Of a stretch of DNA of 52,385 nt, positions 858-49,205 are shown piece after piece. Positions within the stretch are counted from its first letter, which is position 1, and each line of letters begins with the position of its first letter. The notes below the pieces were generated by a model. The model did no database searches and was not told where the DNA came from. It worked only from the letters and a program-made list of their open reading frames with translations. The position numbers were made by a program, and so were the translations under genes. The DNA lies in IMG/VR virus record IMGVR_UViG_3300028840_001809; one strand, given 5' to 3'. The stretch is from a virus.

Positions 858-860
858 GTA

Positions 861-1196
861 ATGTCGTACGAAGACTCGGTAGGCTACAGGAAGAAGTTCC
901 CGATACTCTGGCTTCGGCCGCGCTATCGGCAGTGCGACACTCCTGACGAGATAGCGGCACGGAGAGAATGTATCCTCGCTGTCAGGCAAGCGCTTTCTGA
1001 GATACCGCCGGAGCAAGCCGGTCTACTGGTCGTGCGGTACTGCGAGGGTATGACACTCCGCGACCTCGCAAAGTGGGAGGGCGTTGGGGTGTCTGCTGTC
1101 AGCGAACGTATCAAAGCGGCGGCAAGGCGGTTCCGCGTGGCGCTCCGCAGGAGGCGACCCGATCTTTGCCTGACCGATTTCTCGGAGGTTGTGTGA
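861..1196 (+). CDS. Sigma-70 region-4-like HTH protein (ECF/LuxR-type C-terminal domain only)
   Basis: It is 111 aa. LSEIPPEQAGLLVVRYCEGMTLRDLAKWEGVGVSAVSERIKAAARRF resembles sigma-70 region 4. I could not recognise a region 2. Confidence 0.6.
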   Translation: MSYEDSVGYRKKFPILWLRPRYRQCDTPDEIAARRECILAVRQALSEIPPEQAGLLVVRYCEGMTLRDLAKWEGVGVSAVSERIKAAARRFRVALRRRRPDLCLTDFSEVV

Positions 1197-2110: not shown

Positions 2111-2863
2111 TTACGCAGCCGCATTTCTTGCACGTCCTGGGAGTCTCTCGATTTCCAGGGCGTGTTCTTTTGCGATCTCTGAACAGTAGTCGCTGCTCTT
2201 CTCGATCAGGGTGCATTGTCGGTTGATTCTCCGGCAAACGCGGAGTGTAGTGCCTGTTCCTGCGAAGGGGTCAAGCACTGTTCCGCCTTCTTGCGTGCTG
2301 AGTTTGATACATCTCTCCACAAGCTCTTCATGCAACTGAGTAGGGCACCAGGGTCTTTTTTGGCGAGAGTTACCAGTGACCCGAGGAAAGTCGAACACAT
2401 CCCCAGGTACTCGCCCTCTCGGGTCGGCTCTCTTGTCTCCATTGAGCTGTCTCCAGGAAGGTACGCGGATCTGGTCAGGATAGAAGACAGCATCCTCACG
2501 CCACAGGCGAAGTAAGGGCCGGTAGTTATTTCCGAGATCGGTCTGGCGGTGCTGGCCGAACGTGAAGGTCTGGATGCACTGGCGTGCCCGTAACCACTTA
2601 AATGTCCGGAGCAGTGAGCTGACGATTGAGCCGACGCGAGCAAACCACTTCGCGTTGTAGCTCACCCACGTTATATCTGCCTTCCGGGCGAAGGCCGCGA
2701 TGCAGATCCCGAGCCAGCCAAGGTAGTCGTCCTCTGACCTGTTGTCTGTGTAGCCGGTGTATCTGAGGCCGATATTGTCTGGCGGGTCAGCGAACAAGCA
2801 AGTAGCCAGCGGGAGTGATTCAATCACGTCTTGGCAGTCGCCGTGAATCAGGCGATGTTTCAT
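2111..2863 (-). CDS. DNA methyltransferase, beta-class N6-adenine/N4-cytosine type (N6_N4_Mtase-like)
   Basis: It is 250 aa. The catalytic-position motif is FADPPDN near the N-terminus, and the AdoMet motif VLDPFAGTGTT lies near the C-terminus. The start forms an ATGA overlap with the upstream gene. Confidence 0.8.
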   Translation of the reverse strand: MKHRLIHGDCQDVIESLPLATCLFADPPDNIGLRYTGYTDNRSEDDYLGWLGICIAAFARKADITWVSYNAKWFARVGSIVSSLLRTFKWLRARQCIQTFTFGQHRQTDLGNNYRPLLRLWREDAVFYPDQIRVPSWRQLNGDKRADPRGRVPGDVFDFPRVTGNSRQKRPWCPTQLHEELVERCIKLSTQEGGTVLDPFAGTGTTLRVCRRINRQCTLIEKSSDYCSEIAKEHALEIERLPGRARNAAA

Positions 2864-3429
2864 TCTTCCTCCTCTATCGCCTCAGCCCTCAGGCTGGAGC
2901 CAGTGTGATTCAGGGTAATGCAGCTCGAAAAGTCGGTGAGCTGCGCTCGCAGGACGTTGACTCCGTATCGCGAGAGCTGGGTATCGAGCCGGCCAGTCAG
3001 CGAGCGGTTAATCGCCGTGCGGTCTTCTTGTAGCTCCGCGAACGTTTTGCCGGTCACGAATGCGCAGAGCACGCCCATTACCTCGTCGCCGAGCGAATCT
3101 TCGACGCTATCTGTGTCAATAAGGGCCTTGTGGACGGCTACTGGCGAGCGATCGAACTCGTATCGGACCATCACGCCGGCAACGACTGTCTTGCCGTCTG
3201 AAGTCGTCAGCGATTTCGTTGGTAGACTGATGGTCTGAATGTTCGCCGGCCGGGCGTAGTAGTTGGTCCAGAACGGCCAGATCAGCCGGAGCCCAGGCCG
3301 AAGCACCTTGACCCGAGTGCCGCGTGTCACAGTGACGCCGATCTCGGTACACTCAAGGTGCTTGACCTGCGGAATCCATTGGCCGATCCATTCGGCGAGC
3401 TGGCCAATCCAAGCGAAAGCGCTGGTCAT
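2860..3429 (-). CDS. SPFH/Band-7 (prohibitin-like) domain protein
   Basis: It is 189 aa from ATG 3429, which forms an ATGA overlap with the stop at 3426 and has AGGA 7 nt upstream. GLRLIWPF...LTTSDGKTVVAGVMVRYE...LSRYGVNV is the typical SPFH pattern. Confidence 0.6.
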   Translation of the reverse strand: MTSAFAWIGQLAEWIGQWIPQVKHLECTEIGVTVTRGTRVKVLRPGLRLIWPFWTNYYARPANIQTISLPTKSLTTSDGKTVVAGVMVRYEFDRSPVAVHKALIDTDSVEDSLGDEVMGVLCAFVTGKTFAELQEDRTAINRSLTGRLDTQLSRYGVNVLRAQLTDFSSCITLNHTGSSLRAEAIEEEE

Positions 3430-4070
3430 GCGGCGTCCTTCAGCCAATAGTCAAAGCCGAAAGGCTCGTTGATTCTTGGTGTACGCATTCGCTCCAAGCA
3501 AACTACTGTTTCCATGAATACATGCACCAGCGGTTCCTTGTATTTGGCGTGCAGTGTGTTCCATGGCCTCGGGAACAGTACAGCCTCGCCTCCATGCTTA
3601 CGGAACATCTCCACATTCTCGTCGCTGTCGTCGATCAGTATTCGGCCTACCCTAGCTAGCAGGTGCTTTTGCGGGCCGACAAGGAATTGCCTGTGTAACC
3701 ATCTCGGGCAATGCCTCTGAATCCATTCCGCCTTACCCGATAGACACTCAGGGTCGCTGACAGAGCTAGTCAGTATACAGATGTTTTTTCTGCCGACCAT
3801 TGCTTCGCAGAAGTTGAGTAGCGGCCAGAACTCCTTTGATTTCGGCGCCTGGGCCCAAACGTCTGGTCCATTGAGTTCACTCCATAGCCTCTCGGTATCG
3901 AAGTATAGCTCTTCGTGCAGCGCGTTCGCTGCCTGCGTGAGGTCGAAGCCCCATTTCGGGTCGTACTTACTGAGGGCGCCAGGCGTAACTGGGCAGCCAA
4001 GCATCTGGAGCGCGTGCATCGAGAACTGGTTGAGTACGTCATCTAGGTCGATGAAAATGCGTTTGATCAT
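3426..4070 (-). CDS. HAD-superfamily 5'(3')-deoxyribonucleotidase-like protein (NT5C-like)
   Basis: It is 214 aa. The N-terminal IFIDLDDVLNQF carries the DxDxV phosphoaspartate motif in an NT5C-like context. A strong AGGAGA RBS is present. Confidence 0.6.
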   Translation of the reverse strand: MIKRIFIDLDDVLNQFSMHALQMLGCPVTPGALSKYDPKWGFDLTQAANALHEELYFDTERLWSELNGPDVWAQAPKSKEFWPLLNFCEAMVGRKNICILTSSVSDPECLSGKAEWIQRHCPRWLHRQFLVGPQKHLLARVGRILIDDSDENVEMFRKHGGEAVLFPRPWNTLHAKYKEPLVHVFMETVVCLERMRTPRINEPFGFDYWLKDAA

Positions 4071-4080
4071 AATGTGTCTC

Positions 4081-4536
4081 CTAGGCGGCCCTTTTGTCTT
4101 CGCGGATACAGCAGTGGCAGCTCGTATCGTGTGAGCCTTGGTCTGCCATCTCGTCGCCGTATTGGCATGGAGCCGGAGGGATAGTACACGGCAGGGCCGC
4201 TAGCTCATGCAGGATAGCGAAGGCATTGAAGACTATCGCGCATGCTGCCTCACTCATGTTGATTTCATGGCCGTCCTTGCGATCGAAAGCGATATGGCCT
4301 CGGTTAATCTTCCAGAGGTCAACGGTATGCCGGAGTAGCGACTTCACGCACTCCTTAATCGGTATTCCCTTTTGCCAGCTATCGCTGTCTCGCTTCTTGC
4401 CGTCTGATTGGATGCGGTGTTTATGCAGGTACTCAGCGTACGTTTCTAGTGCGATGGGACAAATGAAACCTTCGTAATCGAGCTTGTCGTCGCTGTTGTC
4501 GCGGGTTGCCCCGCTAGAGAAAGTTCGCATGGTCAT
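4081..4536 (-). CDS. dATP/dGTP diphosphohydrolase-like N-terminal domain protein (DUF5664-like)
   Basis: It is 151 aa. SGATRD..KLDYEGFICPIALETYAEYLHKHR...DSWQKGIP...LLRHTVDLW matches my memory of this phage family. The start forms an ATGA overlap. Confidence 0.5.
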   Translation of the reverse strand: MTMRTFSSGATRDNSDDKLDYEGFICPIALETYAEYLHKHRIQSDGKKRDSDSWQKGIPIKECVKSLLRHTVDLWKINRGHIAFDRKDGHEINMSEAACAIVFNAFAILHELAALPCTIPPAPCQYGDEMADQGSHDTSCHCCIREDKRAA

Positions 4537-5710: not shown

Positions 5711-5987
5711 TGAACTCCTCCTCAATAGATGCGTCATCGTAGTAGTAAGCCCATGGCCGGCATAACACACACGGCCAGTAGTAGACAAGTCCTCCGCATT
5801 CTGGGCACCGGCGCTTCACTCGTAGTTTGTAGGGTATCGCGGGCTTACTGCGTTTTCGTATCGCCGGGAGTCTGCTGATTTTGTGGACTACCCCAACGCT
5901 AACATGGAACTCCCTTGCAATATTCTCGAAGGTATTCCCTTCCTTTAGCGCCTTGCGAATCCCCACTTCTTTCCAGAGTGGCAGCAT
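5688..5987 (-). CDS. Hypothetical HTH plus zinc-ribbon protein (99 aa)
   Basis: It has the HTH-like segment NTFENIAREFHVSVGVVHKI followed by CPECGG...CVLC. Confidence 0.5.
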   Translation of the reverse strand: MLPLWKEVGIRKALKEGNTFENIAREFHVSVGVVHKISRLPAIRKRSKPAIPYKLRVKRRCPECGGLVYYWPCVLCRPWAYYYDDASIEEEFNVEKKAA

Positions 5988-6364
5988 TACTGTATCCTAC
6001 CGATCCATAACTCAACTCTCGGGTGGTCGCAATCGATCCCGAATTCCGGCCGCTCGCGCTGCATGTGCGTATGATCGTCGTCTGGTAACAGGCCGGCATC
6101 CACTATCCCGTCGTAGGCAGCCTTCAGGGAGGCGATAGCGTTGTCCTCGTCGCGGCGGCGCTTGGTCGGGAAAAAGAACCTGGGGGTCACAGATGCCTTT
6201 ATCCATGGTGTGAGCCGCTCTGCCTCAGTGGCCTCGCGTGCTAGCCGGCGATACCGTTTGGCTGCCGCTGCCTTCTTAAATCGCCCGCCTGGCGTGGCTA
6301 CGGCGCAATTTGGCGATAGGACTCTCGGCGGCAGCGGCAACACGACCACGATCGACTCACCCAT
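5987..6364 (-). CDS. rusA: RusA-family Holliday junction resolvase
   Basis: It is 125 aa. The LPLPPRVLSPN...RRRDEDN...KAAYDGIVDAGLLPDD pattern is typical of RusA. Confidence 0.75.
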   Translation of the reverse strand: MGESIVVVLPLPPRVLSPNCAVATPGGRFKKAAAAKRYRRLAREATEAERLTPWIKASVTPRFFFPTKRRRDEDNAIASLKAAYDGIVDAGLLPDDDHTHMQRERPEFGIDCDHPRVELWIGRIQ

Positions 6365-8672
6365 TCTTCTGGCCTTCTAAGTACGCCACATAATTGCCGG
6401 CCGTCCAATAGATCGTTGGTGGCCTGCCGTGCTTTCGTTTTGGACCAGGCTCCGATACGAGAATGTCAGCGTCGAGCATGTCGGCTATGTATCCATTTCG
6501 CGCCTTTTGATTCAGATGTTGTGTTCGCCTTGTGATTTCACGTTGCCTGCATCCGTTAATGCCGTGTTCTTCGACGATTCTGGCAATCTTACGCTTTTCA
6601 GCATCGACGCTGCATACAACCATCTCTGGGGCGATTGTATGCATGAATTGCCAAATGAGAAGTGAGATCAGATTACAGGCGTACTCTGCGACTTGCCAGG
6701 TGATCTCAGGGTGCTCGTAATTGAGGCCGGCAGCGATAATCAGCGCGACCTTACGGGCGTTTTCCTCTGCCTTGAGCCAGAGGTATTTCGACCGCTTGTC
6801 TTTGGCGCCAATTTCCCTGGCTGTATTGTCTAGGCTGATGAGCAGCCGCTCTGCCTCGTCTGTCGAGGGCACGAATAGCTGCGTCGGCGGCTGAAGCGTG
6901 GCTGAGTTCGCTCCGCCATGGACGACCGCATAGGAGTCTAGGTCTTCGTTCTTCGGCTTGATTCGTCGCCTGAACCATTTGGAGACCAGCTCACAAACCT
7001 CTTTGGGCGGCGGATCGTTGCACCTGTCTCTGGATTTCGGCGGCTGATTATCCTCGACGCGGAATACCAGGCACCGCGATAGCCAGCCATCAGACAACTC
7101 GCTCTCAGAGATGCCCTCAAGGAACCTGTCTGGAGTAGAGCTGCCGTAGATGCAACAGCAGGGCTGGATGATGCGGCGCTGCTTCTCGGCGTCGGCGTAC
7201 TCGCGACCTGTGAACGTCGAACCAGAAGATGAGTACAGGCGCATCAAAAGCGGTACGACACCTGTTTTGTGCGTGTCTCTGTTGGCTTTTAGGCTACGAA
7301 GTAGGAAGCCGATCTCGTCCCAAAGAAAGAGCGTCGCGGGGAATCGATGTATTCGTTCTTCGATACCAGCGTCCGAGGCCACCGTCTCGCCGCCCAACAA
7401 GTCCAGGGCGCCCGCTTGTAGGCAAAGCTTCCGGATTTGCCCAGGCGGCCAGTTCTTACCGGAGGATGAATCACCAACACCCATACAGTAGAGATTGGTC
7501 CTCGCGCCAGTCTTTTCTGTGACCTTTCGCCCAAAGAGCGAACCACAGAACGCGAGTGCGCAGCCAAGGGTAAGAAATGGCTGTCTGCATAGGGCCGTGG
7601 AGTTGATCCAATCGCATATTTCGCCGACCAGACCGGGGGGGCGCATTAGGTCGTTTTGGTTGATATCTTCTAGGGGCGTGACCAAACGAGCGGGAAATAC
7701 ACTCCTGCCGGCTAGAATTTGCTGCTGACTCTCGCGATGTGCCGCTAGCATCTCCGCCGCTCCATCGCGGACTTCCTGCGGGACCTCGCCGCGAAGATGT
7801 GCGTACTCCGGGTCATTGAGAATCCAGAGATACGGCAGGTCGCTCGGCGGATGCTTTCGGGCCTCTGTGATCTTACGAACGAAATCTCTGTAGTCCTTCT
7901 TCTCTTGGAGATTCCATGGCGGCGTACAGAATGGGTTGTATTGCCGGGAAAGGATGTCGAACGCCTGGCTGTCCGAGAGCCCAATGCCGTTGACCATGCA
8001 CTGCGCGGCCCAGAAGAGCTTGTCGTGTCCGCCTTGACCCTGAAAGGCTGGCTCGCAATGCTGGATGTACGCCTCGGCAATTTGCATCTTCACGTCGTCC
8101 CTCACACCAGTGGGGTCGAGGCGAGGCGACTGGGAGATCGGTGGCGCAACCCACGGCGCCTTCTCCGCCGGCCGCATGAAGTCGGGGAACTCGGCGATCT
8201 CGATCTGGCCGGGCCCCTGGTCCGGCGCCCAGACGTACCGGCCACCGTTCGGATGGATGGACGGACACGCGACCACGTAGTAGCCATCGCCTCGAATGTC
8301 GATCCCTGGCCGGAAGGAGTTCTTGTTCTTCGGCGGGTCGTCAGTGCGGTAGAAGGCGTGGAAGCCGCCTCGCGGAGTGTCCTGGCGAACGGTTTCCGGG
8401 AGTTCGTCGAACTCTTCCAGTGAATCGTAGCCGTTGACATCGCCGGCCTCGGTCACGTCCACATCAACCACGTAGACTCCGCTCTCCTTGCCGCACGCGA
8501 TTGCGACGTTGAACTGCGGATTCTGAGCCCACCACGCTTTGATCTGCTCAAGGTTGGTAGTGGCGTCTTTGACGCCGTGTGGAGTTGCCGGAATCTTCTG
8601 TTTCGGTCGGCAGGGCAAGACGCGCCAGCCTAGCTCGGCGTACTTTAGTGCTGCCTCAAGGAACTCGGTCAT
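6357..8672 (-). CDS. Bifunctional primase-polymerase (Prim-Pol/AEP) fused to a PriCT-like region and a P-loop helicase-like C-terminal region
   Basis: It is 771 aa. AEP motifs present are LGWRVLPC, VYVVDVDV (DxD) and GGFHAFY. There is a PriCT-like HDKLFWAAQC...CTPPW segment and the Walker-A-like GVGDSSSGKN. Confidence 0.8.
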   Translation of the reverse strand: MTEFLEAALKYAELGWRVLPCRPKQKIPATPHGVKDATTNLEQIKAWWAQNPQFNVAIACGKESGVYVVDVDVTEAGDVNGYDSLEEFDELPETVRQDTPRGGFHAFYRTDDPPKNKNSFRPGIDIRGDGYYVVACPSIHPNGGRYVWAPDQGPGQIEIAEFPDFMRPAEKAPWVAPPISQSPRLDPTGVRDDVKMQIAEAYIQHCEPAFQGQGGHDKLFWAAQCMVNGIGLSDSQAFDILSRQYNPFCTPPWNLQEKKDYRDFVRKITEARKHPPSDLPYLWILNDPEYAHLRGEVPQEVRDGAAEMLAAHRESQQQILAGRSVFPARLVTPLEDINQNDLMRPPGLVGEICDWINSTALCRQPFLTLGCALAFCGSLFGRKVTEKTGARTNLYCMGVGDSSSGKNWPPGQIRKLCLQAGALDLLGGETVASDAGIEERIHRFPATLFLWDEIGFLLRSLKANRDTHKTGVVPLLMRLYSSSGSTFTGREYADAEKQRRIIQPCCCIYGSSTPDRFLEGISESELSDGWLSRCLVFRVEDNQPPKSRDRCNDPPPKEVCELVSKWFRRRIKPKNEDLDSYAVVHGGANSATLQPPTQLFVPSTDEAERLLISLDNTAREIGAKDKRSKYLWLKAEENARKVALIIAAGLNYEHPEITWQVAEYACNLISLLIWQFMHTIAPEMVVCSVDAEKRKIARIVEEHGINGCRQREITRRTQHLNQKARNGYIADMLDADILVSEPGPKRKHGRPPTIYWTAGNYVAYLEGQKNG

Positions 8673-16342: not shown

Positions 16343-16591
16343 TCAGATTGGCGGGCCTAGGCCCTTTAGCTCAATATCCAGTTCGCAGCCAAGGGCGCGA
16401 GCCACAGCCTCGATCGTACTTAGCTTAACGTCACCTGGGCTATCGCCGAGGAGATTGCAAATCGTACTTTCGGCGAGTCCAGTCCTGGAGGCGAGTTCGC
16501 GCTGAGAGATGTCGCGTTCAAACATCTCTCTCCGGATGGCACGGCGAAGTCGAGGCGGCATAGGCATTTGGTACGACGCTCCATTTTTCAT
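16343..16591 (-). CDS. XRE-family (Cro/CI-type) HTH regulator
   Basis: It is 82 aa from ATG 16591; the ORF is open to 16660. ISQRELASRTGLAESTICNLLGD is the XRE HTH. It lies immediately downstream of the integrase. Confidence 0.7.
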   Translation of the reverse strand: MKNGASYQMPMPPRLRRAIRREMFERDISQRELASRTGLAESTICNLLGDSPGDVKLSTIEAVARALGCELDIELKGLGPPI

Positions 16592-16649
16592 GTTGCGACC
16601 TTCTTCTCTAGCATACATCGCAACAGGCTTAGTGTCAAGGCAAATTCCG

Positions 16650-17819
16650 TTAGCCTCCATTGAACAGCCAATTCCGCACTGTGCCGGCGACGACTGCTAG
16701 CCTTTCTAGCTCTTGGAGATTGAGTTGCGAATAGACACGTTTCTGGAGTGACTTGTTCGTGTGCCCCATCGTTAGATCGATCATGGCCTGATCTGGCACG
16801 AGGTCCACAACGGTCCCGTACGTGTGACGTAGGCTCCCTAGGCTCACTGCCCTGGGGCGATCCCCGATTGAGTCCAGTAAGAGGCTGAACGACTTTAGTA
16901 GCACAAGGCCCCCACGTTTCCCGTAACCCTCCCGCCACCTGGACAGCAGTAATCGCTGCTCAAATGAGTTGGCCGGCCTGCGATGGTTGTCCCGGTAATC
17001 CCGAATCGCCTCCACTGTCTCCGGCCACAATGCTGCCATCCGGCGCTGGCTGTTCTTGACGCGCCGGAAGTCGTGGTAGGGAATCTCGCCGTCCAGGTGC
17101 AGGCGATCCATAGGGATGGCGACAGTATCTCCTGGGTAGAAACCGCAGTTGATCCCAAGAAGAATCGCGACCTTCATCTTGGGGTTTGCACGATCCATCG
17201 CCGTGAGAATCAGCTCCCGGTCCAGGAAACGACAGGCACCATTCTGCTCTTGCTCGGCCTCGATGGCATTGAGCGGCGGCGCCACGAACCGCGGGCCGTA
17301 GCGAATTTCCCGATCGATCATCCCCATCTGCCGCCCCCAGTTGAAAATGACCTTGATGGCAATAATGAGGTTCTTCTGGGTCCGCAGGCCGCGCCCGGAT
17401 CGCTCCAGGATGCTCTGAAGCACGGTGAAATGCTCGGGCCCGATAGAGCTAACAGGCATCCCGGAGAGGCGAGCGTCGTCGAACAACTTGCCGGCCACAG
17501 CGTAACCTGATCGCGACCTGAACTTCATCCGGCCGGCGGCGATCCTGCTGTCCACATCAGCCAGGTGCCTGGCGGCCAGCTCGCCAACAGTCAGGCCATC
17601 ATTCCAGGTCGGCGGCTCCAGGCCAGCTTCGAGGTATTCTCGTTCGCTGTCCCAAAGCTTGAGCGCGGCTTGCGGGTCGTCGAGCTTACCGAAGTAGTGA
17701 GTCTTCCCGCGGATCTTCTTCGACCAGCGACCGCTCGGGTGGACGGTTAGTGGGTAGCTCGGGTGCCCCTTCTTCCAGGCTCGATACTCTCGCACTCGTC
17801 TTTGCATTACTGCATTCAT
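16650..17819 (-). CDS. int: Tyrosine recombinase / phage integrase
   Basis: It is 389 aa. The C-terminal catalytic signature is ...LRHTYGT...MGHTNKSLQKRVY. The N-terminal region looks like a SAM-like/arm-binding domain. Confidence 0.85.
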   Translation of the reverse strand: MNAVMQRRVREYRAWKKGHPSYPLTVHPSGRWSKKIRGKTHYFGKLDDPQAALKLWDSEREYLEAGLEPPTWNDGLTVGELAARHLADVDSRIAAGRMKFRSRSGYAVAGKLFDDARLSGMPVSSIGPEHFTVLQSILERSGRGLRTQKNLIIAIKVIFNWGRQMGMIDREIRYGPRFVAPPLNAIEAEQEQNGACRFLDRELILTAMDRANPKMKVAILLGINCGFYPGDTVAIPMDRLHLDGEIPYHDFRRVKNSQRRMAALWPETVEAIRDYRDNHRRPANSFEQRLLLSRWREGYGKRGGLVLLKSFSLLLDSIGDRPRAVSLGSLRHTYGTVVDLVPDQAMIDLTMGHTNKSLQKRVYSQLNLQELERLAVVAGTVRNWLFNGG

Positions 17820-18161
17820 CGCAATTGCATCCCGATTATCAAGTGTACCTTGTTTTGGCGGCAGTCTTTCCTTGATTGACTACCACTACAGAACGGCTGG
17901 GTGTCAAACGGGTGTCTTTCGTTGTTTAGCCGACTTGCCCGGTTCACATAAAGCCTTGTTTGTCAACAGGTGTCGGCGCACCATTCAAGTATATCCTCCG
18001 ATCCCAACACCTGCAACTGTTTTCTTTGGCATTACAGTAAAGTGCTTGTCACACAAAGACTTACGGCGACGGCCTGAATCGCCGTAAGTGACAGAAATGA
18101 GCAGATTTTGCCAGGTACCGGGTGTCTTGACACCCGCGCTGTTTGCTCGCCGAATAGCGCG
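17820..18161. promoter_or_regulatory. Integrase-proximal non-coding region; candidate attP with repeated GGGTGTC sites and hairpins
   Basis: GGGTGTC occurs at 17899 and 17910 (11 bp apart) and AGGTGTC at 17968. There is the palindrome CGGGTGTC-TT-GACACCCG (18119-18136), an 11-bp hairpin (18059-18069 / 18079-18089), and a perfect 22-bp palindrome GCCGAATAGCGCGCTATTCGGC (18149-18170). Confidence 0.5.
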
Positions 18162-38055: not shown

Positions 38056-38059
38056 CAAG

Positions 38060-38130
38060 ACCCCCGGCTAGGACTCGAACCTAGATGTCATCTTCTACGA
38101 AGTGGGCTCTACCAGTTGAACTACCGAGGG
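38060..38130 (-). tRNA. tRNA-like element / probable degenerate tRNA: canonical acceptor, D and T arms but a non-canonical anticodon arm
   Basis: The minus strand reads CCCTCGG-TA-GTTC-AACTGGTA-GAGC-C-CACTTCGTAGAAGATG-ACAT-CTAGG-TTCGAGT-CCTAG-CCGGGGG-T. It has a 7-bp acceptor stem (one G-U) and a perfect T arm with GGTTCGAGTCC. The anticodon region is 2 nt short, so only a 5-nt loop or a GUA triloop is possible. No CCA is encoded. Confidence 0.5.
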
Positions 38131-41532: not shown

Positions 41533-41624
41533 ACTACCAGAAGAACCGGCAAAAAAAGCGTTGGCGTGAAAATGCTAACCGCAGAGACATAACGTGTTCT
41601 TGTGGCGGTACTTACAGAGAAAAC

Positions 41625-41673
41625 GTGTCAGATATGACACAACTTTCAAGGGAAACCACGCCAGATATGACAC
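41625..41673. promoter_or_regulatory. Duplicated 12-mer CAGATATGACAC (41629-41640 and 41662-41673); the first copy lies in the palindrome GTGTCA-GATA-TGACAC
   Basis: There are two exact copies 33 bp apart in the 150-bp gap after the portal gene. This is one of the few intergenic gaps in the late operon. Confidence 0.5.
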
Positions 41674-41682
41674 GATTTTCGT

Positions 41683-43434
41683 CTAAGCGCTCCGGCGACC
41701 CAGCGATGCCACCTCACTCCCTTGAGGCTGCCCACCCATAAGGGCATCCTGGAGGATCTGGCTCTTGCCGTGGTCCGTAGCGCCTGGCCGATTGACTCGC
41801 TCATAAGTCCGCGTCGTGTGAATCGGCATCCCAGGAGGTTCAGCGCCAGGCGCATGAGCCTGGTCGGCCCAGATGATTAGCCTCCTTAGCTCGTCGAAGT
41901 CCGAGTACTTCGCAATAATCTCAAAGAGCAACTGGATATCAAGTACGCCACCAACTTCTTGAATCTGCGGCATCATTGGCGACACGAAACGCTGAAGAAT
42001 CATTTCGAGCTTCTGCATCTTCGCCGCCGGCGAGTCGTCCTGAAGCGAGTACACGTCGATGTCGAGATCATAGAAATCGAACTGCCCTTGCTTTGAGGAT
42101 TGATCCCATGGAACGACGATCGAGAGGTTCGTACCGGGAATCCCCTTCGTGAGCACACGCCGTCGAACTGGGTCACTCCACTCGTGATAGGCGAGGACAC
42201 CGAAGAGCTTCTTTGAGAAGTCAATAACCTGAAGGGCCATGTCGCGGAGCTGAGCGTTCGACGCCTCGGCCATGAGCTTATCCTGCCCCAGTGTCTCGGC
42301 CTGCGGCGCGAGGCCACCGAGCGAATCAAGGTTAGATGCGAAATAGCTGGCAATGTCACGGCACTGCAACCAGAACGCTAGGCCCAACTGATCCACGCCA
42401 CCGACCTGCAAGCTCTTCGGCTCGGCACCGTTGTACGTAATCCCATCGCAGTCATTGGCGCCCTGGAATTGCTTAGCGCTCTCCTCATCGCCACCAGAAA
42501 ACCCAAGGACCGACTTCTGGGCGTCGGCTTGATCGCCAAGCTTACGGAACAATGAGTTGGCCATCTCATGGAGGTCGCGCCACATAGCCACCGGCGGAAG
42601 TGGCATGAGGTTACCCGGAACATGATCGAAGCCAAGCCCGATATAGGGGCCGTGCTTCGGTTCGTCCTGCTCGACTACCTTCAGTCGCTTCTCCGCCCTA
42701 ACGGCGTATGTCACCATCAACCGCTCTTTCGGCAGCCATACATCACGTAGCTTGATCTTCTCGCGGAACACCTCAGCCGACGAGTTTATCGAGATACTCT
42801 CAGCACGATCCTCGCCGGCAGAACCAATGACCGTAAACTCATCGGCCTTCAGATCGCGCTTCGCATTCTTTGGGAACCAATCGGAGTCCATTACGTCTTC
42901 GTAGTCCACCCAGTATTCGTTGCCGATATACTGAATCTGATCCATTCTCGTCGCGGCCATATCAATCAAGAGATCGTCCAGCGTCACGATATCAACAAAC
43001 GGCTGGCCATAGTCGTGCCCGAGAATCTCGCCAACCGTATGCAGCCCGGTCTTCACCCAACCAGACGAGAACAGGGCCTCGATAACGACATTCCGGAGGG
43101 TATGCTGTAAATCAATCTCGGCTGGTATCTGATTAAGTGCCAACTCAAAGTTCGCAGCTACCGGCTCGAAGCCAGGTTCGTTCGTTCCGATAAGGACCCT
43201 TGGTGCCCGAGGCGCTAGTAACCGTGCGAAGATCGTCACGGCCAGCTTTAAGAACGGAGTCGGTACACGCTTCTCGGCACCTTCCTCGGAATAGTGATAT
43301 CCAACAAACTCCTTAATCGCCTCCACTCGCTTACTGCGAGGGAACTCTAACTGTTGCTGCGACCACTCAATGCTCTTATGAAGCCGCTCGAACTCTCTGG
43401 CTTTCAGCGGATTTGTCTCTGCCATTACCCCCAT
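41683..43434 (-). CDS. Putative portal protein (583 aa)
   Basis: It lies directly after, and overlaps, the large terminase gene, and its size is typical of a portal. The alternative start ATG 43424 is possible. Confidence 0.65.
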   Translation of the reverse strand: MGVMAETNPLKAREFERLHKSIEWSQQQLEFPRSKRVEAIKEFVGYHYSEEGAEKRVPTPFLKLAVTIFARLLAPRAPRVLIGTNEPGFEPVAANFELALNQIPAEIDLQHTLRNVVIEALFSSGWVKTGLHTVGEILGHDYGQPFVDIVTLDDLLIDMAATRMDQIQYIGNEYWVDYEDVMDSDWFPKNAKRDLKADEFTVIGSAGEDRAESISINSSAEVFREKIKLRDVWLPKERLMVTYAVRAEKRLKVVEQDEPKHGPYIGLGFDHVPGNLMPLPPVAMWRDLHEMANSLFRKLGDQADAQKSVLGFSGGDEESAKQFQGANDCDGITYNGAEPKSLQVGGVDQLGLAFWLQCRDIASYFASNLDSLGGLAPQAETLGQDKLMAEASNAQLRDMALQVIDFSKKLFGVLAYHEWSDPVRRRVLTKGIPGTNLSIVVPWDQSSKQGQFDFYDLDIDVYSLQDDSPAAKMQKLEMILQRFVSPMMPQIQEVGGVLDIQLLFEIIAKYSDFDELRRLIIWADQAHAPGAEPPGMPIHTTRTYERVNRPGATDHGKSQILQDALMGGQPQGSEVASLGRRSA

Positions 43435-45242
43435 CCATCTGCATGTAGCAGTTCTCTGTTTGGTTTACGTTCATCCTGTTCGCGCATCTGTCGCCGCCAT
43501 GCAAGACTGCCGACCGGAATCTTGCGTTGTTCATGTTGCTCCGGCCTCGACTTCCGGTCGGTGATACCGCGCCACGCCAAGGCGTCGGCAATCACACGGT
43601 CACCGTGGTTCCCTTTCGCGCCGGTCGGGTCCACCTTGTTATCCTCAATCGAGTGCGAGACGCCGCCCTTGTTATCGAAGAGATATTCGAGCGTCTCCTG
43701 AAGCGCGATCTTCGACCTGTTTACACAGGCAAACTTCTCGACAGCCGCGCGATACTCGCCCATCAGTACGAGCTTCGTCTCCTTCGTGCTGGCCCATCCC
43801 GGCACATCCGAAACCTTCTTCGAGATCGATTCCTCACGGCGCCGGTAGTAGATGTTCCCGTACTTCAGCTCTAAAACCCGCGATCCGAATTGCCGGCCTG
43901 GGCCATTACTCTCCCAGATAATCAGAGCACCATCGAACCACCTGGCAAGCGCCACAACCTGCCTGGCAAACTCCTCGGGGCGAATGTACGGATTGGCGTA
44001 CTCGAAGAGCTTCTCGTTCGTCACGGCGTCATAGCCACAGGCGCACGAGTTCGATGAGCCGGTTCCAGCCGATACGTCCACGCCGATGACAACGCGGTGT
44101 TCCCGCGGCGGGTTGCCGTCTTTATTGAGCAGACACCAGAGGTGAAGCCGACCATCCTGGCACTCACGGAAAGCGACAGGTTCAGCCGTGATGGAGTCGT
44201 ATTCCAGATCACCCACTAGGCTCGGCGGCCGGGCGAAGCGGCGAATGGCTTCCTGAATCGCAGTGGCCGAGAAATACTGGTAGCCGGAGCCGAGATAGTC
44301 GATATCCAGCTCGGTCGCGATCTCACGCTCTGAGACGGTGCGCTTGCACTCATTGTCATACCACGGTGACCGGAGCTTGCCGTCCAAGATCGGATGGTAG
44401 TTAGCCGGATACCCGCTGTAGTCGAAGACTTCCAGCCCGCCGTCATCGGCTGTCTTGTAGAGCCCATGGTTCTTCAGCGGGTGCTCGCTCCAATGGAAGC
44501 GAAGCTTCTGAATGCCAGTCTGCCGTATATCGTAATATGCATTACCTACGCCGTTCGGCGTCGAGTTGAAGAGCCGGCATTTCGTGGCGTCTCGGGTAGC
44601 ATTCAAGACACGATGCCCGAACTCATCGACGGCAGCGAACTCATCTAAGAGGATTCCAGACCGCCGGTCACCACGAGCGAAGTTGGCTGTCGTACTCTCG
44701 CCGTCGATGACGCTCTCGGTCTGCGGGTTGTAGATGTGCATCTTAGAGCGGCACGATCTATCAAAGCCCCGCGGCATCAGCCAACCCGGAAGGTTCTTAT
44801 GGATAAAGTCCACCTTCCAGAAGAGTGACTTGGGGTTATCTGACTTATCGACGTACTCCTCGACCCGACTACCCATCAGAAACGAGAGCATCTCGTGGAA
44901 ATGCCAAGCCCACTCGAAGCCGAGGATACACAGCCACGAGGCCCCCATGTCTCGTGACTTCTCGACCAGCAGATCGTGGTCATTGATCGCCAGAATGATC
45001 TCCCTAAGCCCGTATTCCTGAAACGGGTAGAGAATCATCGGGACCTTTGGGAAAGGCTCCCTGCGCGGATCGTACGTCCACACGAACCCGTTAACGTAGA
45101 AGATTGGGTCCTGCCTACATGCGTCCCAGATTACGTCCGCATACGACTGATCTTCCATGACCTGACGATAGACGTTCGCCCGCCACCGCATATTCTCAGC
45201 GAGGTCGGTCGGAACCCGATACGAGAGCTGAGAGAAATGCAC
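43425..45242 (-). CDS. terL: Terminase large subunit
   Basis: It is 605 aa, with a Walker-A-like VEKSRDMGASW and Walker B GILLDEFAAV, followed by a nuclease-sized C-terminal half. The start is GTG 45242, overlapping the upstream TAG. Confidence 0.85.
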   Translation of the reverse strand: MHFSQLSYRVPTDLAENMRWRANVYRQVMEDQSYADVIWDACRQDPIFYVNGFVWTYDPRREPFPKVPMILYPFQEYGLREIILAINDHDLLVEKSRDMGASWLCILGFEWAWHFHEMLSFLMGSRVEEYVDKSDNPKSLFWKVDFIHKNLPGWLMPRGFDRSCRSKMHIYNPQTESVIDGESTTANFARGDRRSGILLDEFAAVDEFGHRVLNATRDATKCRLFNSTPNGVGNAYYDIRQTGIQKLRFHWSEHPLKNHGLYKTADDGGLEVFDYSGYPANYHPILDGKLRSPWYDNECKRTVSEREIATELDIDYLGSGYQYFSATAIQEAIRRFARPPSLVGDLEYDSITAEPVAFRECQDGRLHLWCLLNKDGNPPREHRVVIGVDVSAGTGSSNSCACGYDAVTNEKLFEYANPYIRPEEFARQVVALARWFDGALIIWESNGPGRQFGSRVLELKYGNIYYRRREESISKKVSDVPGWASTKETKLVLMGEYRAAVEKFACVNRSKIALQETLEYLFDNKGGVSHSIEDNKVDPTGAKGNHGDRVIADALAWRGITDRKSRPEQHEQRKIPVGSLAWRRQMREQDERKPNRELLHADGWG

Positions 45243-45859
45243 TACGCGGCCATACTGCCTTCCCTCTCTTCTTGGCCTTGGATTCGCGAAAGCATCCTCT
45301 CAATCTCCTCGACGCTCCGTCGCCCAGCCTTGCGTGTCCGCCGGTCCTCTTCTTCGATCGGATCAACCTTCGACTCGACCTGACCGAGGCGCTGCATAAA
45401 CTCCTTTGGCTGCTCCTTCGCCTGGATATAGAGGAAGTACGCCTGGTCGTTCGGGCAGCTCTTCGGCTCCTCGCCTTTCCGTAGGAACACCCCGGCAGCC
45501 GTAAGAGCCCACGAGATGTTCTCCCGGTAAGACAATTCTTCGCCCTCGCAACGGACCGCTCGCTCCTTCTTGTCTGGCTTCGGAGTCTTAGGATGTGAGT
45601 CTGGGTGCGGGTCGTACTGTGACACGTCATACTCGCGGAAGAGCTGATTGAGGCACGGGAAGTCCTTGGCCGCCTGAACGGTGGCCTGATTCAGTGTCAT
45701 CGCCCCACCCTTCTGGAACTCCTCGGTCAATCGCTGGAACTTCAGATAGGTCAGCTTCTCCCGGTCGGTCTTGCCGGGGTCCTGGCGCCAGAGGATCGAC
45801 CGGGCCCGCGATCGAAACTCCTTGATTGCAGCAGACGGCGACAGGCCCTTACCCGGCAC
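45242..45859 (-). CDS. Hypothetical protein (205 aa from GTG 45859); a small terminase candidate by position only
   Basis: It lies immediately upstream of terL, and AGAGAGGG precedes GTG 45859. I recognised no DNA-binding motif. Confidence 0.35.
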   Translation of the reverse strand: MPGKGLSPSAAIKEFRSRARSILWRQDPGKTDREKLTYLKFQRLTEEFQKGGAMTLNQATVQAAKDFPCLNQLFREYDVSQYDPHPDSHPKTPKPDKKERAVRCEGEELSYRENISWALTAAGVFLRKGEEPKSCPNDQAYFLYIQAKEQPKEFMQRLGQVESKVDPIEEEDRRTRKAGRRSVEEIERMLSRIQGQEEREGSMAA

Positions 45860-46022
45860 GGCGCAACCCTCTCTTTCCGTAGCTTGGGCACCCCGTATTT
45901 GGACACACACTCAGAACTGTCCAGGCGCCGCAATAGCGACACCGAAACTCAGCGCGGCGACTAGCCCTCTCTTGGCGGTAGGCGCGCTGAGCCTGCATGA
46001 GTGTATCGCCTTCCTTACTCAT
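45849..46022 (-). CDS. Small zinc-ribbon protein (57 aa)
   Basis: ATG 46022 follows GGAGAGGAGAG. The Cys pairs are CRYCG...CPNTGC. Confidence 0.5.
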   Translation of the reverse strand: MSKEGDTLMQAQRAYRQERASRRAEFRCRYCGAWTVLSVCPNTGCPSYGKRGLRRAG

Positions 46023-46328: not shown

Positions 46329-47418
46329 CGTCCACCTCGCGAATGATATTTGCAAGTTGCATGTAATCCGACTCAGCGGACTCCATAGCCTGCTCAGCAT
46401 AATGCCGGCAATTATCCAGCGCAACTCTCCATCGCTTCAGCTTCTCGCCGGCATCCTCACCACCGCGCAACTTCAGTACTTCGAGGGCTTGCTCGGAGAT
46501 GATCTCGTAGAGCCGCTCGACATCGAACTGGCCGATCTGCTCGACCTGGCGCTTCAGCTTGTCCCTTTCATCGATGGCCTCGCGGTATCGCCGCTGAAGA
46601 TCGCGGTTGACTTCTAGCGCATTATCGCATGTCTTGCGTTCGTCATTCGCGATGTCATCCAGGCTCCTGATGATGTTAATCGCGCATTCGGCAATATCCT
46701 CGCCGTCAGAAGGCTCACCTTTCACCTCCTCAGTGAAAAGGAGCTTATCGATTTCAGCCTTCTGCTCCCTGCATTGAGAACTAAGCTTGATACACTCCTC
46801 TCGCCACACCTTAGCGGAATTACTCTCCTCTTCTGGTGCCTTAGCGTCCTCGATGGACTTTTCGAGCTGCTGGAATTTATCCTGCCACATCTTAATAGCG
46901 GCCTGCTTGATCGAGAGGAGATTGATGAGTTGCTCGATGTCGGAGTCGTACTCGTCACACTCTTGCTCTCTCTCTTCGAGCAACCTTTTCGTCTCTTCGA
47001 GCTGACTCGCTGCACGATAACGCTTACCCTCGATGAAGTCGCGCTCGTTACGCAGCTTCTTGGCCAGCTCAGCCCCTTCCTTAAGCAATTCGGCCACCTC
47101 ATCGAACCGCGTGTACAGACGCCCGATTTCTTGATTCGACATTTCCGCTTGCCAAAAGAGATCGCGCCTTAATCGCCGCACTCGCCACGGTGAGCTGACC
47201 AGCCGGACGACCAGGCGGAGCGGTGTGAAAGCGAGTCTGATCAGGAAGCGGACGATCAACAAAAGGCGCCAGAGGAACCAGCGAACAGGGCGACTAGGCT
47301 TCTCGGTCACTCGGTCGGTCAGCTTAGCAAGCTGATTCATAGTGTCGGGGTCCACAAACACAGCGGTGTCTCTGAGTAGCGATGACTCATGCACGGGCAT
47401 ACGGAACAGGTCGCTCAT
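46300..47418 (-). CDS. Membrane-anchored coiled-coil protein (372 aa); first gene of the minus-strand block
   Basis: It has a GAGGAGA RBS, the hydrophobic/basic segment WFLWRLLLIVRFLIRLAF, and a long acidic coiled coil. Confidence 0.6.
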   Translation of the reverse strand: MSDLFRMPVHESSLLRDTAVFVDPDTMNQLAKLTDRVTEKPSRPVRWFLWRLLLIVRFLIRLAFTPLRLVVRLVSSPWRVRRLRRDLFWQAEMSNQEIGRLYTRFDEVAELLKEGAELAKKLRNERDFIEGKRYRAASQLEETKRLLEEREQECDEYDSDIEQLINLLSIKQAAIKMWQDKFQQLEKSIEDAKAPEEESNSAKVWREECIKLSSQCREQKAEIDKLLFTEEVKGEPSDGEDIAECAINIIRSLDDIANDERKTCDNALEVNRDLQRRYREAIDERDKLKRQVEQIGQFDVERLYEIISEQALEVLKLRGGEDAGEKLKRWRVALDNCRHYAEQAMESAESDYMQLANIIREVDDAFQERKAA

Positions 47419-47638
47419 GGTGTCTCTCCTCTGGGGGCTGGGAATCGATCTTCAGTCCAGCCTACCAGGCGACCGGGCCGAAAATCCGCCGACGTGAAAA
47501 CTGCGGGGCCCCAGGGATGCGCCGGCCAGTAGGCGAGGACGAGGGCAGAGCGTCCTGCCCCATAGAGGGAGTTAGAACTACAATCCCAGAGGGATCGGTC
47601 GGCGCTCGAGGTCAGCCGTCCAATCGGTCGATCCGGCC

Positions 47639-47689
47639 CCATGGACCATGGAGCCTGGCCCGCTTCCATGGAGCCAGGGGCCCCATGGA
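47639..47689. repeat. Four CCATGGA(G/C) units within 51 bp (iteron-like)
   Basis: The copies start at 47639, 47646, 47666 and 47683. Two of them extend to CCATGGAGCC(T/A)GG. Confidence 0.8.
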
Positions 47690-47761
47690 GCAACGCATGC
47701 GCATGAGCCGGGCCCCTGGCCGCTCAGCCACATTCCGGCGGGGCCCCGTATTCCCAGTTGG

Positions 47762-47787
47762 GAATGATCGAGAATGATCGAGAATCG
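47762..47787. repeat. Tandem repeat GAATGATCGA x2 plus a partial GAATCG
   Basis: Read directly from ggaatgatcgagaatgatcgagaatcg. Confidence 0.85.
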
Positions 47788-48029
47788 TACCCCCCGTAGG
47801 TTTAAGGGGCATCAGTGGCACAGAGTTACGACACTAGCAGGTAGGGGGAGAGTTCGATGCAAGCTTGTGTCGCATTTAACCTCTTAGCTTTACTGGAGTT
47901 ACGTGCTAATGTCATATAGTCAGGGGTTCTCTAGGTATAAGGGGAAAAAAGGGAGGTGCTGGAAGAGGTGAGAAACGAGGTGCTTGACGCTGTGACGGAC
48001 TGGGGGGAGAGGGGGGGAGAGCGAAGCTC

Positions 48030-48062
48030 TATATATATAACTATATATATATATTATACTTA
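48030..48062. repeat. (TA)n-rich AT tract, the only such tract noticed in the genome
   Basis: The sequence is tatatatataactatatatatatattatactta. It is preceded by GGGGGGAGAGGGGGGGAGAG. Confidence 0.85.
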
Positions 48063-48825
48063 CATCTTCTGGGGTTCAAACGGGGTTGACGGATTGACGT
48101 TTAGAAAGAATTGGTACCGCAAGGACTTACGGCGATGACGTTTTTAATGCGTCACTTCTGAAATACATCAGACTTGCTTCTGATTGATTCCTGACCACTT
48201 TCCTGCCACGTTCAGGTGGGTGGTTGTCTTGGTTGGGGCCCCTTACTTTGAGGGCGGTGTTTTTGGGAATTCCCGTGGTGGGGGAGGTGGGCTAACTGCT
48301 AGTAGGGGAAGGGAGCGACCGGGGTGGGTTGGTAAGGATTTTGAGGGTTATGGGGCCCCCCCTGGCCGCCGAGGGCATGTCCTGAGAGTGCCATACTCTC
48401 AGTGCATAACAGCGCAACTCTATGGCACACAATAGTTTATGTGTGTGCATGCCGTAGGGGAGACACCTGGCGCCGGGTGTCGAGGGCGTCCTCGCCCTGC
48501 ATGGCCGGCTGATCTGGCCAGCCCAGAGGGAGCGCGAACTTAGTCAGGCTGTCTGACTTGAAATACGCCCAGCCCCTCTCCGCCTCTCTCACGCACTCAC
48601 CCTCTCCACGTCCCAGAACACCTGCGCTGCCCTCGGATGCCCTTAGACGGGCTCTCCGGGCTCGCAATGGGCTCTCACGACCACTCTGATCGGCATGATT
48701 GCCGATCGGTCCAGAATTCGCGGTAATCGTTTCGGATTTCTGCTGGACAACCACAGAATTCGTGTCCAGACTTGAAATAGACCAGTTTACACGAATCCGT
48801 ATCACTGACCAAGGGGGGGGAATCG

Positions 48826-48984
48826 ATGAGTGACAGACACAAGGCCCAAGCCATCGCCAACCGTGAGGGCCGATCAATCTGGGTGATTCGCCCGGACATG
48901 TCCGGCTACTGGGTGCGCCCTCGCTCCGATGGCCGGCGCGATCACTTCCGTAACCTGCTGAGCATCCGGAGGGCAATCGCATGA
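48826..48984 (+). CDS. Hypothetical protein (52 aa); first gene of the plus-strand early block
   Basis: It was hand-translated as MSDRHKAQAIANREGRSIWVIRPDMSGYWVRPRSDGRRDHFRNLLSIRRAIA. AAGGGGGGGG lies 6 nt upstream, and its TGA overlaps the next ATG. Confidence 0.5.
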   Translation: MSDRHKAQAIANREGRSIWVIRPDMSGYWVRPRSDGRRDHFRNLLSIRRAIA

Positions 48985-49205
48985 TGTTTCGTATGACCAT
49001 CCGCTGCGACAATGCCGCATTTGACGGAGAGAACCTCGGATCAGAACTAGCCCGTATCTTGCGTCACGAGGCAGATGCGATTCAAGAGGCAGGCATGCCA
49101 GAATGCGGGTGCAATGTGATTCTCGATTGCAATGGCAATCGCGTGGGGCTGGCCGTTCTCACAACTGTTGACTTTGCATTTGGCTTAGAGGGGAACACCG
49201 TATGA
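48981..49205 (+). CDS. Hypothetical protein (74 aa)
   Basis: It has coupled ATGA junctions on both sides and protein-like composition. Confidence 0.55.
   Translation: MMFRMTIRCDNAAFDGENLGSELARILRHEADAIQEAGMPECGCNVILDCNGNRVGLAVLTTVDFAFGLEGNTV

Follow-up and report, generated by a model that had tools for sequence, protein, structure and literature searches.

The gene-free interval and its place in the genome

The stretch of DNA analysed here (the window; 52,385 bases, IMG/VR virus record IMGVR_UViG_3300028840_001809) belongs to an uncultivated tailed phage of ~52 kb that is probably temperate, and the element of interest in it is a gene-free interval at 47419-48825, referred to below as the hub, which is bounded on the late side by the minus-strand gene of a 372-aa protein (ending at 47418) and on the early side by the first early ATG at 48826 on the plus strand. 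No other gap in the gene map comes near the 1,407 bp of the hub, which has no codon-position GC pattern and no conserved open reading frame (ORF). A preliminary description, made from the sequence alone, had proposed a gene-free stretch of 1.4 kb without protein-like ORFs between two divergent gene blocks, and the gene map bears out both its extent and its position. The GC contents at the three codon positions (GC1/GC2/GC3) are flat in the hub ORFs, against ~0.6/0.4/0.7 in real genes, and the hub frames have no conserved translated match in 79 related loci apart from one marginal hit. The seven groups of sequence features listed in that description were all found at the positions it had given.

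Genes on the minus strand extend from 47418 down to 2111 and begin with the 372-aa coiled-coil protein, a conserved 222-aa protein, the large terminase subunit TerL (43425-45242), the portal protein and the head and tail genes, followed by a tyrosine-recombinase-like gene, an XRE regulator, the replication module and a DNA methylase. Plus-strand genes run from 48826 through the contig junction to 2049 and form a block of small early-type genes, among them those for ArdA and a sigma region-4 protein. A 144-bp copy of the start of the window recurs at its end. The ArdA antirestriction gene lies across the contig junction (52088-52385 joined to 1-328; Pfam E = 2e-41) without interruption, and the window therefore represents the whole genome, of ~52.2 kb, assembled as a circle. 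The 144-bp repeat results from overlapping ends in the assembly of a circular or circularly permuted genome, a true terminal repeat being ruled out by a gene that reads through the junction.

A blastn search with the hub gave no match among 50,697 phage records, and none of the cultured phages is close, their TerL proteins being at most 32% identical over part of the length. Related loci (TerL identity 57-72%) were recovered when TerL and the 222-aa protein served as queries against viral, metagenome and genome collections; the 372-aa flanking protein, used as query, retrieved no relatives. Gene callers leave gene-free intervals of 1,396 bp (L067), 1,376 bp (L068) and 1,233 bp (L076) at the same place, and inspection of ORFs revealed hubs of 0.9-1.7 kb in L002, L004, L005, L009, L010, L011, L017, L031, L038 and L066. 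The primary sequence of the hub is mostly unalignable between relatives and the order of its modules is the same in all, namely, from the early side, an early-proximal block, GGGGGCCCCAT with an element of ~110 nt, an AT tract with repeats on either side, and CTCCATGGAG palindromes near the late genes. This comparison, which the preliminary description had put forward as a check, shows that position, size and module order are kept and that the region is non-coding. The early and late genes, which are transcribed in opposite directions, are separated by a non-coding control region that is conserved.

The plus strand of the hub had been described as G-rich, and its GC skew of +0.35 in a 541-bp window from 47801 (to about 48341) is in fact the genome maximum; the C-rich segment pointed out at 48565-48640 consists of 53% C. 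The neighbours of the hub form a highly mosaic set of genes: a small zinc-ribbon protein (CxxC...CxxC) is the product of the first late-side gene in L009 (2867-3085), L010 (2042-2341) and L017 (7517-7800), and the same slot holds two XRE proteins in L068 and, in the window, the 372-aa protein, which has just weak coiled-coil/SMC-like matches.

The modules of the hub

The 8-bp palindrome GGGGCCCC is found at 47505, 47677, 47740, 48235 and 48352 and nowhere else in the 52,385 bases, as the first reading of the sequence had suggested. Markov models of order 1-3 predict 0.5-1.0 copies per genome, and the probability of at least five copies in 850 bp is ~4e-13. It is also the most widely shared 8-mer of the hubs (25 copies in 9 of 10 phages) and has practically no copies outside the hub in the clade's fetched loci, its copies lying 2.3-4.4 kb upstream of TerL in the relatives. 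Every locus that has the 222-aa protein and sufficient upstream sequence carries it, in degenerate form in two lineages. L067 and L068 have a single copy each; the window has three extra late-side copies, the outermost of which (the fifth copy, 47505-47512) lies 87 bp before the point where the 372-aa gene starts. No relevant report on GGGGCCCC was found in the phage literature. Both GGGGCCCC and CCATGGAG proved to be genuine conserved motifs, as sites for dimeric DNA-binding proteins, supposed in the preliminary description, would predict. Because a perfect palindrome stays invariant in otherwise fluid DNA, its simplest partner is a dimeric protein conserved throughout the clade, and the GGGGCCCC palindromes would be the sites of such a protein.

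The copy nearest to the early genes is extended to (CTCTCA)G-GGGGGCCCC-AT and starts an alignable element of ~110 nt which reads, across phages, AAATCCTTACCAACCCC, a C-rich stretch, (G)TTAGCCCGCCTCC, GGCGCCAC and ATTTC. In the window this signature element (48235-48361, minus strand) opens with GGGGGCCCCAT (48351-48361), continues along the minus strand with AAAATCCTTACCAACCC, a C-rich stretch, GTTAGCCCACCTCC, CCACCACGG and AATTCCC, and closes with a second GGGGCCCC (48235-48242). It can be aligned over 13 phages, that is, the window and 12 relatives, including one of 38% GC in which the palindrome has decayed to GAGGACCCAC and the element is still recognisable. Its orientation relative to TerL is constant, its late-sense strand is the C-rich one in 12 of 14 phages, and a pattern search built on it, with a gap of N45-75, matches further viral contigs of 48-54 kb. 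A coding function is ruled out by stop codons and by indels that are not multiples of three, and RNAalifold runs with 7-12 homologues on both strands gave at most 11 pairs, no consensus fold and essentially no covariation. We could find no described counterpart of this invariant GGGGCCCC-led element.

A low-complexity AT-rich tract lies 215-510 bp to the late side of the signature copy in every relative but L066. In the window it forms a candidate DNA-unwinding element at 48002-48062, composed of a 20-nt purine run (48002-48021) directly followed by a (TA)n-type tract (48030-48062). The preliminary description had called the latter the only long AT tract, and the sole A/T run of at least 12 bases in the genome indeed starts at 48042, the AT-richest 60-bp window starting at 48030. 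This module is the only part of the hub with conservation at the blastn level (84% to L008/L009, in which its orientation is inverted, and 70% over 169 bp to L067). The tract is (TA)n in the window, L004, L005, L009, L010, L011 and L067, (GTA)n-like in L017, L068 and L076, and ~90 nt of poly(T) in L002, and in the relatives it is often placed between a purine run and a pyrimidine run. Shifts of tract type between relatives, among poly(T), (GT)n and (GTA)n, can be followed at L002 7900-7985, L009 1720-1750, L068 2985-3040 and L017 6935-6990. The L003 contig breaks exactly at its poly(T) tract, such tracts being also assembly breakpoints.

Around the tract of the window the pentanucleotide TGACG, absent from the preliminary description, occurs six times (47985, 47993, 48087, 48095, 48136 and 48150). 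The left repeats (47983-47999) comprise TTGACG (47984) and GTGACGG (47992), and the right ones (48085-48156) comprise TTGACGG (48086), TTGACGT (48094), ATGACGT (48135) and the inverted GCGTCAC (48149-48155); six copies in 180 bp are the genome maximum for this pentanucleotide. The tract-side repeats are phage-specific, being GTGTCA(A) in L067 and L009, GTGACA in L011, GGACAC in L004 (eleven copies), ACTTCA in L038, GCTTCA in L002 and CTCCGA in L079. An unbiased scan of the loci ranked the tract-side window as the best repeat window in L004, L009, L031, L067 and L079 and as the second in L038, and none of the other intergenic gaps of the window joins an AT-rich tract with repeats. By analogy, an AT tract with short repeats on both sides resembles the architecture of iteron-containing origins. 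Of the origin that the preliminary description had supposed, the AT-rich element, now with short flanking repeats, is supported, and the CCATGGA units that it had taken for iterons are not, since these are late-proximal and not adjacent to the AT tract.

Those CCATGGA(G/C) units (47639, 47646, 47666 and 47683) were found where they had been described, and a count on both strands gave five CCATGGA sites in 60 bp, the genome-wide maximum. They belong to a late-proximal palindrome array at 47635-47747, in which the four units (47639-47690) are interleaved with the GGGGCCCC copies at 47677 and 47740 and GGGCCCC is present at 47710; GGGCCCCTGGCCGC at 47710 repeats the flank of the signature element (repeat D15). 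In L068, L076 and L078/L079, too, CTCCATGGAG-type palindromes stand in tandem ~100-270 bp ahead of the first late gene (degenerate in L067), and such palindromes are probably operator or activator sites of the late operon. The tandem GAATGATCGA repeat noticed earlier (47762-47787, plus strand) consists of two full copies, at 47762 and 47772, and a partial third, and was not seen in relatives.

On the opposite side, the early-proximal block at 48689-48825 (plus strand) is a putative early promoter/operator with 5' untranslated region and contains the inverted repeat GAATTCGTGT (48756-48765)/ACACGAATCC (48789-48798). The segment 48689-48829 is collinear with the equivalent block of L067 (61% identity) and L068 (64%), and in an alignment made by eye a ACTTCAAT.AGACCGAT-like core, which matches the GACTTGAAATA motif, is shared, ~45-55 nt ahead of the start codon of the first early gene. 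The repetition of GACTTGAAATA at 48555 and 48769 (48769-48779), already remarked upon, compares with an expectation of 0.01. The two GACTTGAAATA blocks are 214 bp apart and both face the early genes, and the first (48555-48612, plus strand), made of GACTTGAAATA at 48555-48565 and C-rich direct repeats of ~22 nt (48565-48586 and 48591-48612), may be a second, upstream early promoter-like copy. A perfect hairpin or palindrome with a 10-bp stem, CTGATCGGCA-tgat-TGCCGATCGG (48686-48709; -16.9 kcal/mol), had not been listed before.

A candidate initiator and the origin reading

The minus-strand gene at 6357-8672 encodes a 771-aa protein with a Prim-Pol domain. In its AlphaFold2 model (predicted local distance difference test, pLDDT, 89.9) the N-terminus matches the PrimPols of pRN1 and NrS-1, the C-terminal half matches MCM/ORC/Cdc6 AAA+ proteins in a fold search, and the chain ends in a helix-helix-helix-strand-strand unit; a sequence search of the PDB with this protein gave no match, the fold search alone being informative. 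As modelled, it joins a PrimPol to an AAA+ domain of MCM/ORC/Cdc6 type and a winged-helix-like C-terminus. Metagenomic homologues of 44-58% identity number more than 300, many on contigs of ~50 kb and some on Mb-sized bacterial contigs, which points to a large, undescribed clade of phages and prophages. The gap downstream of the gene (5789-5986) contains no repeats.

The replication module ends, also on the minus strand, with an N6/N4 DNA methylase (2111-2863), preceded by an SPFH/Band 7 protein (2860-3447), an NT5C-like nucleotidase (3426-4070) and a domain weakly resembling dATP/dGTP diphosphohydrolases (4081-4536). Synteny with the prophage relatives L074 and L075 extends to the diphosphohydrolase-like domain in both, to the methylase in L074 and to a weak NT5C in L075, and this gene set might serve nucleotide-pool or DNA-modification chemistry. 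The 389-aa protein (16650-17819, minus strand) has tyrosine-recombinase motifs and shares 50% identity with a protein (L074 2042-3226) from the edge of a syntenic prophage on an 8.76-Mb bacterial contig, and therefore the phage is probably temperate. Matches to two metagenome-assembled genomes suggest Sedimentisphaerales or Anaerolineales hosts, the binning of phage contigs being unreliable. The 342-bp gap upstream of the 389-aa gene (17820-18161) contains four GGGTGTC sites, including the palindrome GGGTGTCTTGACACCC at 18120-18135, and is a candidate attP/operator region; an attP inside the hub is ruled out by the integrase-like gene and this separate repeat-rich gap at 16650-18161. The least GC-rich intergenic gap (45%) is the one of 150 bp downstream of the portal gene (41533-41682), with three GTGTCA copies (41625, 41635 and 41668), which have their core in common with the AT-tract-flanking repeats of relatives. 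A scan for tRNA and tmRNA genes found nothing in the hub, the sole match being a distant tRNA-Tyr (GTA) at 38059-38130 (minus strand), inside the structural block.

The reading that we favour, and to which we give an even chance, is that the hub holds the replication origin, formed by the AT tract and its flanking repeats and served by the PrimPol-MCM-like protein, between early and late control elements, and that the GGGGCCCC element is a clade-wide protein-binding platform. The hub, which separates a rightward early block (ArdA, sigma region-4 and small proteins) from a leftward block of packaging and structural genes, would act as DNA, through a series of protein-binding modules whose order is kept in the clade. 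From the early side, these modules would be a promoter/operator block; the GGGGGCCCCAT-led signature element of ~110 nt, often closed or trailed by more GGGGCCCC, which would offer sites to a dimeric protein; an origin-like core, in which an AT-rich tract (here a purine run and (TA)n) has phage-specific repeats on either side; and a late-proximal CTCCATGGAG-type array for control of the late operon. The winged-helix-like end of the PrimPol-MCM/Orc-like ATPase would bind the tract-side repeats and melt the tract, as the Rep proteins of Staphylococcus aureus pathogenicity islands (SaPIs) do. What the analysis establishes is the non-coding character of the hub, the statistics of its motifs, the constancy of module order and the fold of the candidate initiator, whereas all binding partners and the origin activity are inferred.

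Origins of SaPIs have 6-12 iterons of five or six nucleotides, distributed over the two sides of an AT-rich region, to which Rep binds through its winged-helix domain; Rep is a self-loading helicase that is sometimes fused to its primase (PMC9371898). The two systems are alike in having element-specific penta- or hexanucleotide repeats on both sides of a central AT-rich region and in encoding an AAA+ helicase that ends in a winged-helix domain (here winged-helix-like and predicted) and to which a primase is linked or fused. They differ in that the SaPI origin is directly downstream of rep, whereas here the candidate initiator is ~40 kb off, and in that the window repeats are few and mostly in one direction; the SaPI origin also lacks a GGGGCCCC element. 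In Ceduovirus (Lactococcus phage c2) the origin occupies a non-coding region between divergent early and late blocks which, like the hub, is free of ORFs and variable in sequence among otherwise similar phages (PMC7150918). The c2 region, however, is shorter, AT-rich throughout and able to replicate a plasmid without phage proteins, and c2 itself is a 22-kb lytic cos phage without a PrimPol-helicase and without sequence similarity to the window. On the favoured reading the hub would be a variant of these known designs, SaPI-type and Ceduovirus-type origins.

More distant parallels are offered by the ori/crr system of P4, with its alpha primase-helicase, and by the lambda ori, in both of which the DNA-binding domain of the initiator reads repeated short sites beside an easily melted region. 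The P4 iterons are octamers at two distant sites and the lambda ori lies inside the initiator gene O, and neither origin is known to be associated with a clade-wide GC palindrome. The control region of the polyomavirus SV40 likewise has inverted pentanucleotides and an AT tract between divergent promoters, together with GC-rich boxes and an AAA+ helicase initiator; this is an analogy only, for the way in which the hub may function, SV40 being a eukaryotic virus without homology whose GC boxes bind the host factor Sp1, and no membership is claimed.

Several observations weigh against an origin in the hub or against parts of this scheme. The candidate initiator gene lies ~40 kb from the hub and not beside or around the putative origin. 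At least one 5-mer reaches six copies in 180 bp in 0.6% of windows and the TGACG cluster ties with ~7 other loci, and therefore the repeat evidence from the window alone is just modest; five of the six TGACG copies also have the same direction, and exact 6-mer repeats beside the tract are unremarkable in 7 of the 13 relatives scanned. GTGTC-type repeats are also present in the window gaps 17820-18161 and 41533-41682, so that in the relatives such sites could be operators rather than iterons. GC skew was discarded as evidence for an origin, because replication and transcription both switch direction at the hub. A scan for sigma-70 promoters recognised none, and the searches of the 222-aa protein for a small terminase (Pfam, PHROGs, NCBIfam, and fold searches of PDB and BFVD) were all negative.

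Alternatives and significance

A less probable reading, yet one deserving serious attention, is that the hub is purely transcriptional, with divergent promoters and operator arrays (GTGTC/TGACG, CTCCATGGAG and GGGGCCCC), an AT tract acting as a bendable or UP-like spacer, and the origin elsewhere. Its location between divergent operons suits such a function, as do many repeats of the relatives, being true palindromes of operator type (e.g. GTGTCA-A-TGACAC and TTGACAC-N5-GTGTCAA in L067). The GGGTGTC sites, GGGTGTCTTGACACCC included, cluster in 17820-18161 beside the integrase and XRE genes, and one inverted GGGTGTC pair is present in the hub (48462-48481). Possible regulators are also present: the phage encodes a 112-aa protein (858-1193, plus strand) consisting of sigma-70 region 4 alone and an XRE-type helix-turn-helix (HTH) protein (16343-16660, minus strand) adjoining the integrase-like gene, both of them candidate binders of hub motifs, and the first late-side genes of L068 encode XRE HTH proteins. 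However, no sigma-70-type promoter was detected, and operators alone leave unexplained why a low-complexity tract that changes in sequence ((TA)n, (GTA)n or T50) keeps a fixed place with repeats on both sides. A transcriptional hub is moreover compatible with a co-resident origin, as in Ceduovirus.

That the hub contains the packaging site (pac or cos), where the small terminase would bind the signature element or the tract-flanking repeats and cut nearby, we regard as unlikely, although the proposal and the others are not mutually exclusive. In its favour, the packaging genes are downstream of the hub, the signature element never changes its orientation to TerL, and GGGGCCCC is present exactly in the loci carrying the 222-aa protein just upstream of TerL, a co-occurrence that could be mere phylogeny. 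The gene of this protein (45242-45910, minus strand) overlaps the TerL start by 1 nt. The AlphaFold2 model (pLDDT 85.9) is all-helical with a long C-terminal helix, and some longer homologues carry HTH domains; the protein could be a small terminase of a divergent or new kind. The nearest database relatives of TerL are T4-like or headful-type terminases, and headful packaging suits a circular assembly. A further parallel is the pac site of P1, in which hexanucleotide repeats on both sides of a central region are bound by the small terminase, much as repeats lie on both sides of the AT tract in the hub; the P1 site is inside pacA and is regulated by Dam methylation of GATC-containing hexamers. 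The conserved core GGAGGCGGGGTAAG also recalls the cos end of P2, GGCGAGGCGGGGAAAGCAC. Against packaging, the element is 2.3-3.1 kb from TerL with variable genes between them, L067 and L068 have a single GGGGCCCC copy, cutting at a palindrome would yield self-complementary ends, which is unusual, and the 222-aa protein has no structural match to solved or predicted small terminases. The contig ends of relatives are scattered and none coincides with the signature element, the break of L003 at poly(T) being an assembly effect.

Somewhat less likely again is that the GGGGGCCCCAT-led, strand-asymmetric element of ~110 nt represents a new class of phage cis-element specific to the PrimPol-MCM clade, either a directional initiation site or a new packaging recognition site, with GGGGCCCC binding an unrecognised dimeric protein. 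In the former case the C-rich strand would template a primer-independent or R-loop-assisted start by the PrimPol beside the unwinding tract.

A long structured leader or non-coding RNA made from the G-rich plus strand, and acting in antitermination, as an R-loop or as primer RNA, seems improbable. The cluster of four hairpins (48375-48500, plus strand), which includes CTGAGAGT/ACTCTCAG (48382-48402) and GACACC-N7-GGGTGTC (48462-48481), folds as the preliminary description had it, and over 131 nt it is more stable than shuffled controls, more so on the plus strand (z = -4.0) than on the minus strand (z = -2.5). The strong excess of G over C on the plus strand, an asymmetry kept in 12 of 14 phages, and the spacing of the two GACTTGAAATA blocks, reminiscent of the non-coding stretch between two early promoters in Ceduovirus, would also fit a transcript. 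Yet the search of the whole window with the Rfam 15 covariance models, proposed beforehand, gave no match at gathering score, and permissive settings (E up to 5) over 47200-49000 returned two chance-level hits only, with E values of 0.25 and 2. No consensus structure or compensatory changes appeared with RNAalifold on either strand, and, judged by hairpin z-scores, most relatives do not keep the cluster as a whole; its only recurring hairpin is the GAGAGT/ACTCTC stem next to the signature palindrome, found again in L067. The G-quadruplex motif pointed out at 48305 is the only canonical one (G3+N1-7) on the plus strand, but such motifs are absent from the hubs of 11 of 13 relatives, all but L002 and L031, which does not support a functional G-quadruplex. 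Of the control centre imagined in the preliminary description, a conserved non-coding region between divergent blocks is supported, and the structured RNA, the G-quadruplex and the CCATGGA iterons are not. A telomere-resolution site or genome terminus around a (TA)n palindrome is the least credible proposal, since the purine run, (TA)n and pyrimidine run that make up a long imperfect palindrome in some relatives (e.g. L067 and L010) are incomplete in the window, where the pyrimidine arm is missing and the tract is not palindromic, relatives have poly(T) or (GTA)n in place of (TA)n, no protelomerase was matched among the 43 window proteins scanned against Pfam (not every ORF), the genome assembles as a circle through a coding gene, a tyrosine integrase-like gene is present and relatives occur as integrated prophages.

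Annotation of intergenic control regions is very rare for uncultivated phages, and the hub provides a testable map of cis-elements for a large clade, which the invariant GGGGCCCC element makes easy to recognise by sequence. Should the origin consist of the AT tract and its repeats, the SaPI-type design with a self-loading helicase would extend to full-size tailed phages, in a position between early and late promoters. The different repeats of the relatives (TGACG, GTGTCA, GGACAC, CTCCGA and others) would then be natural specificity swaps in which the co-evolution of initiators and iterons could be followed.

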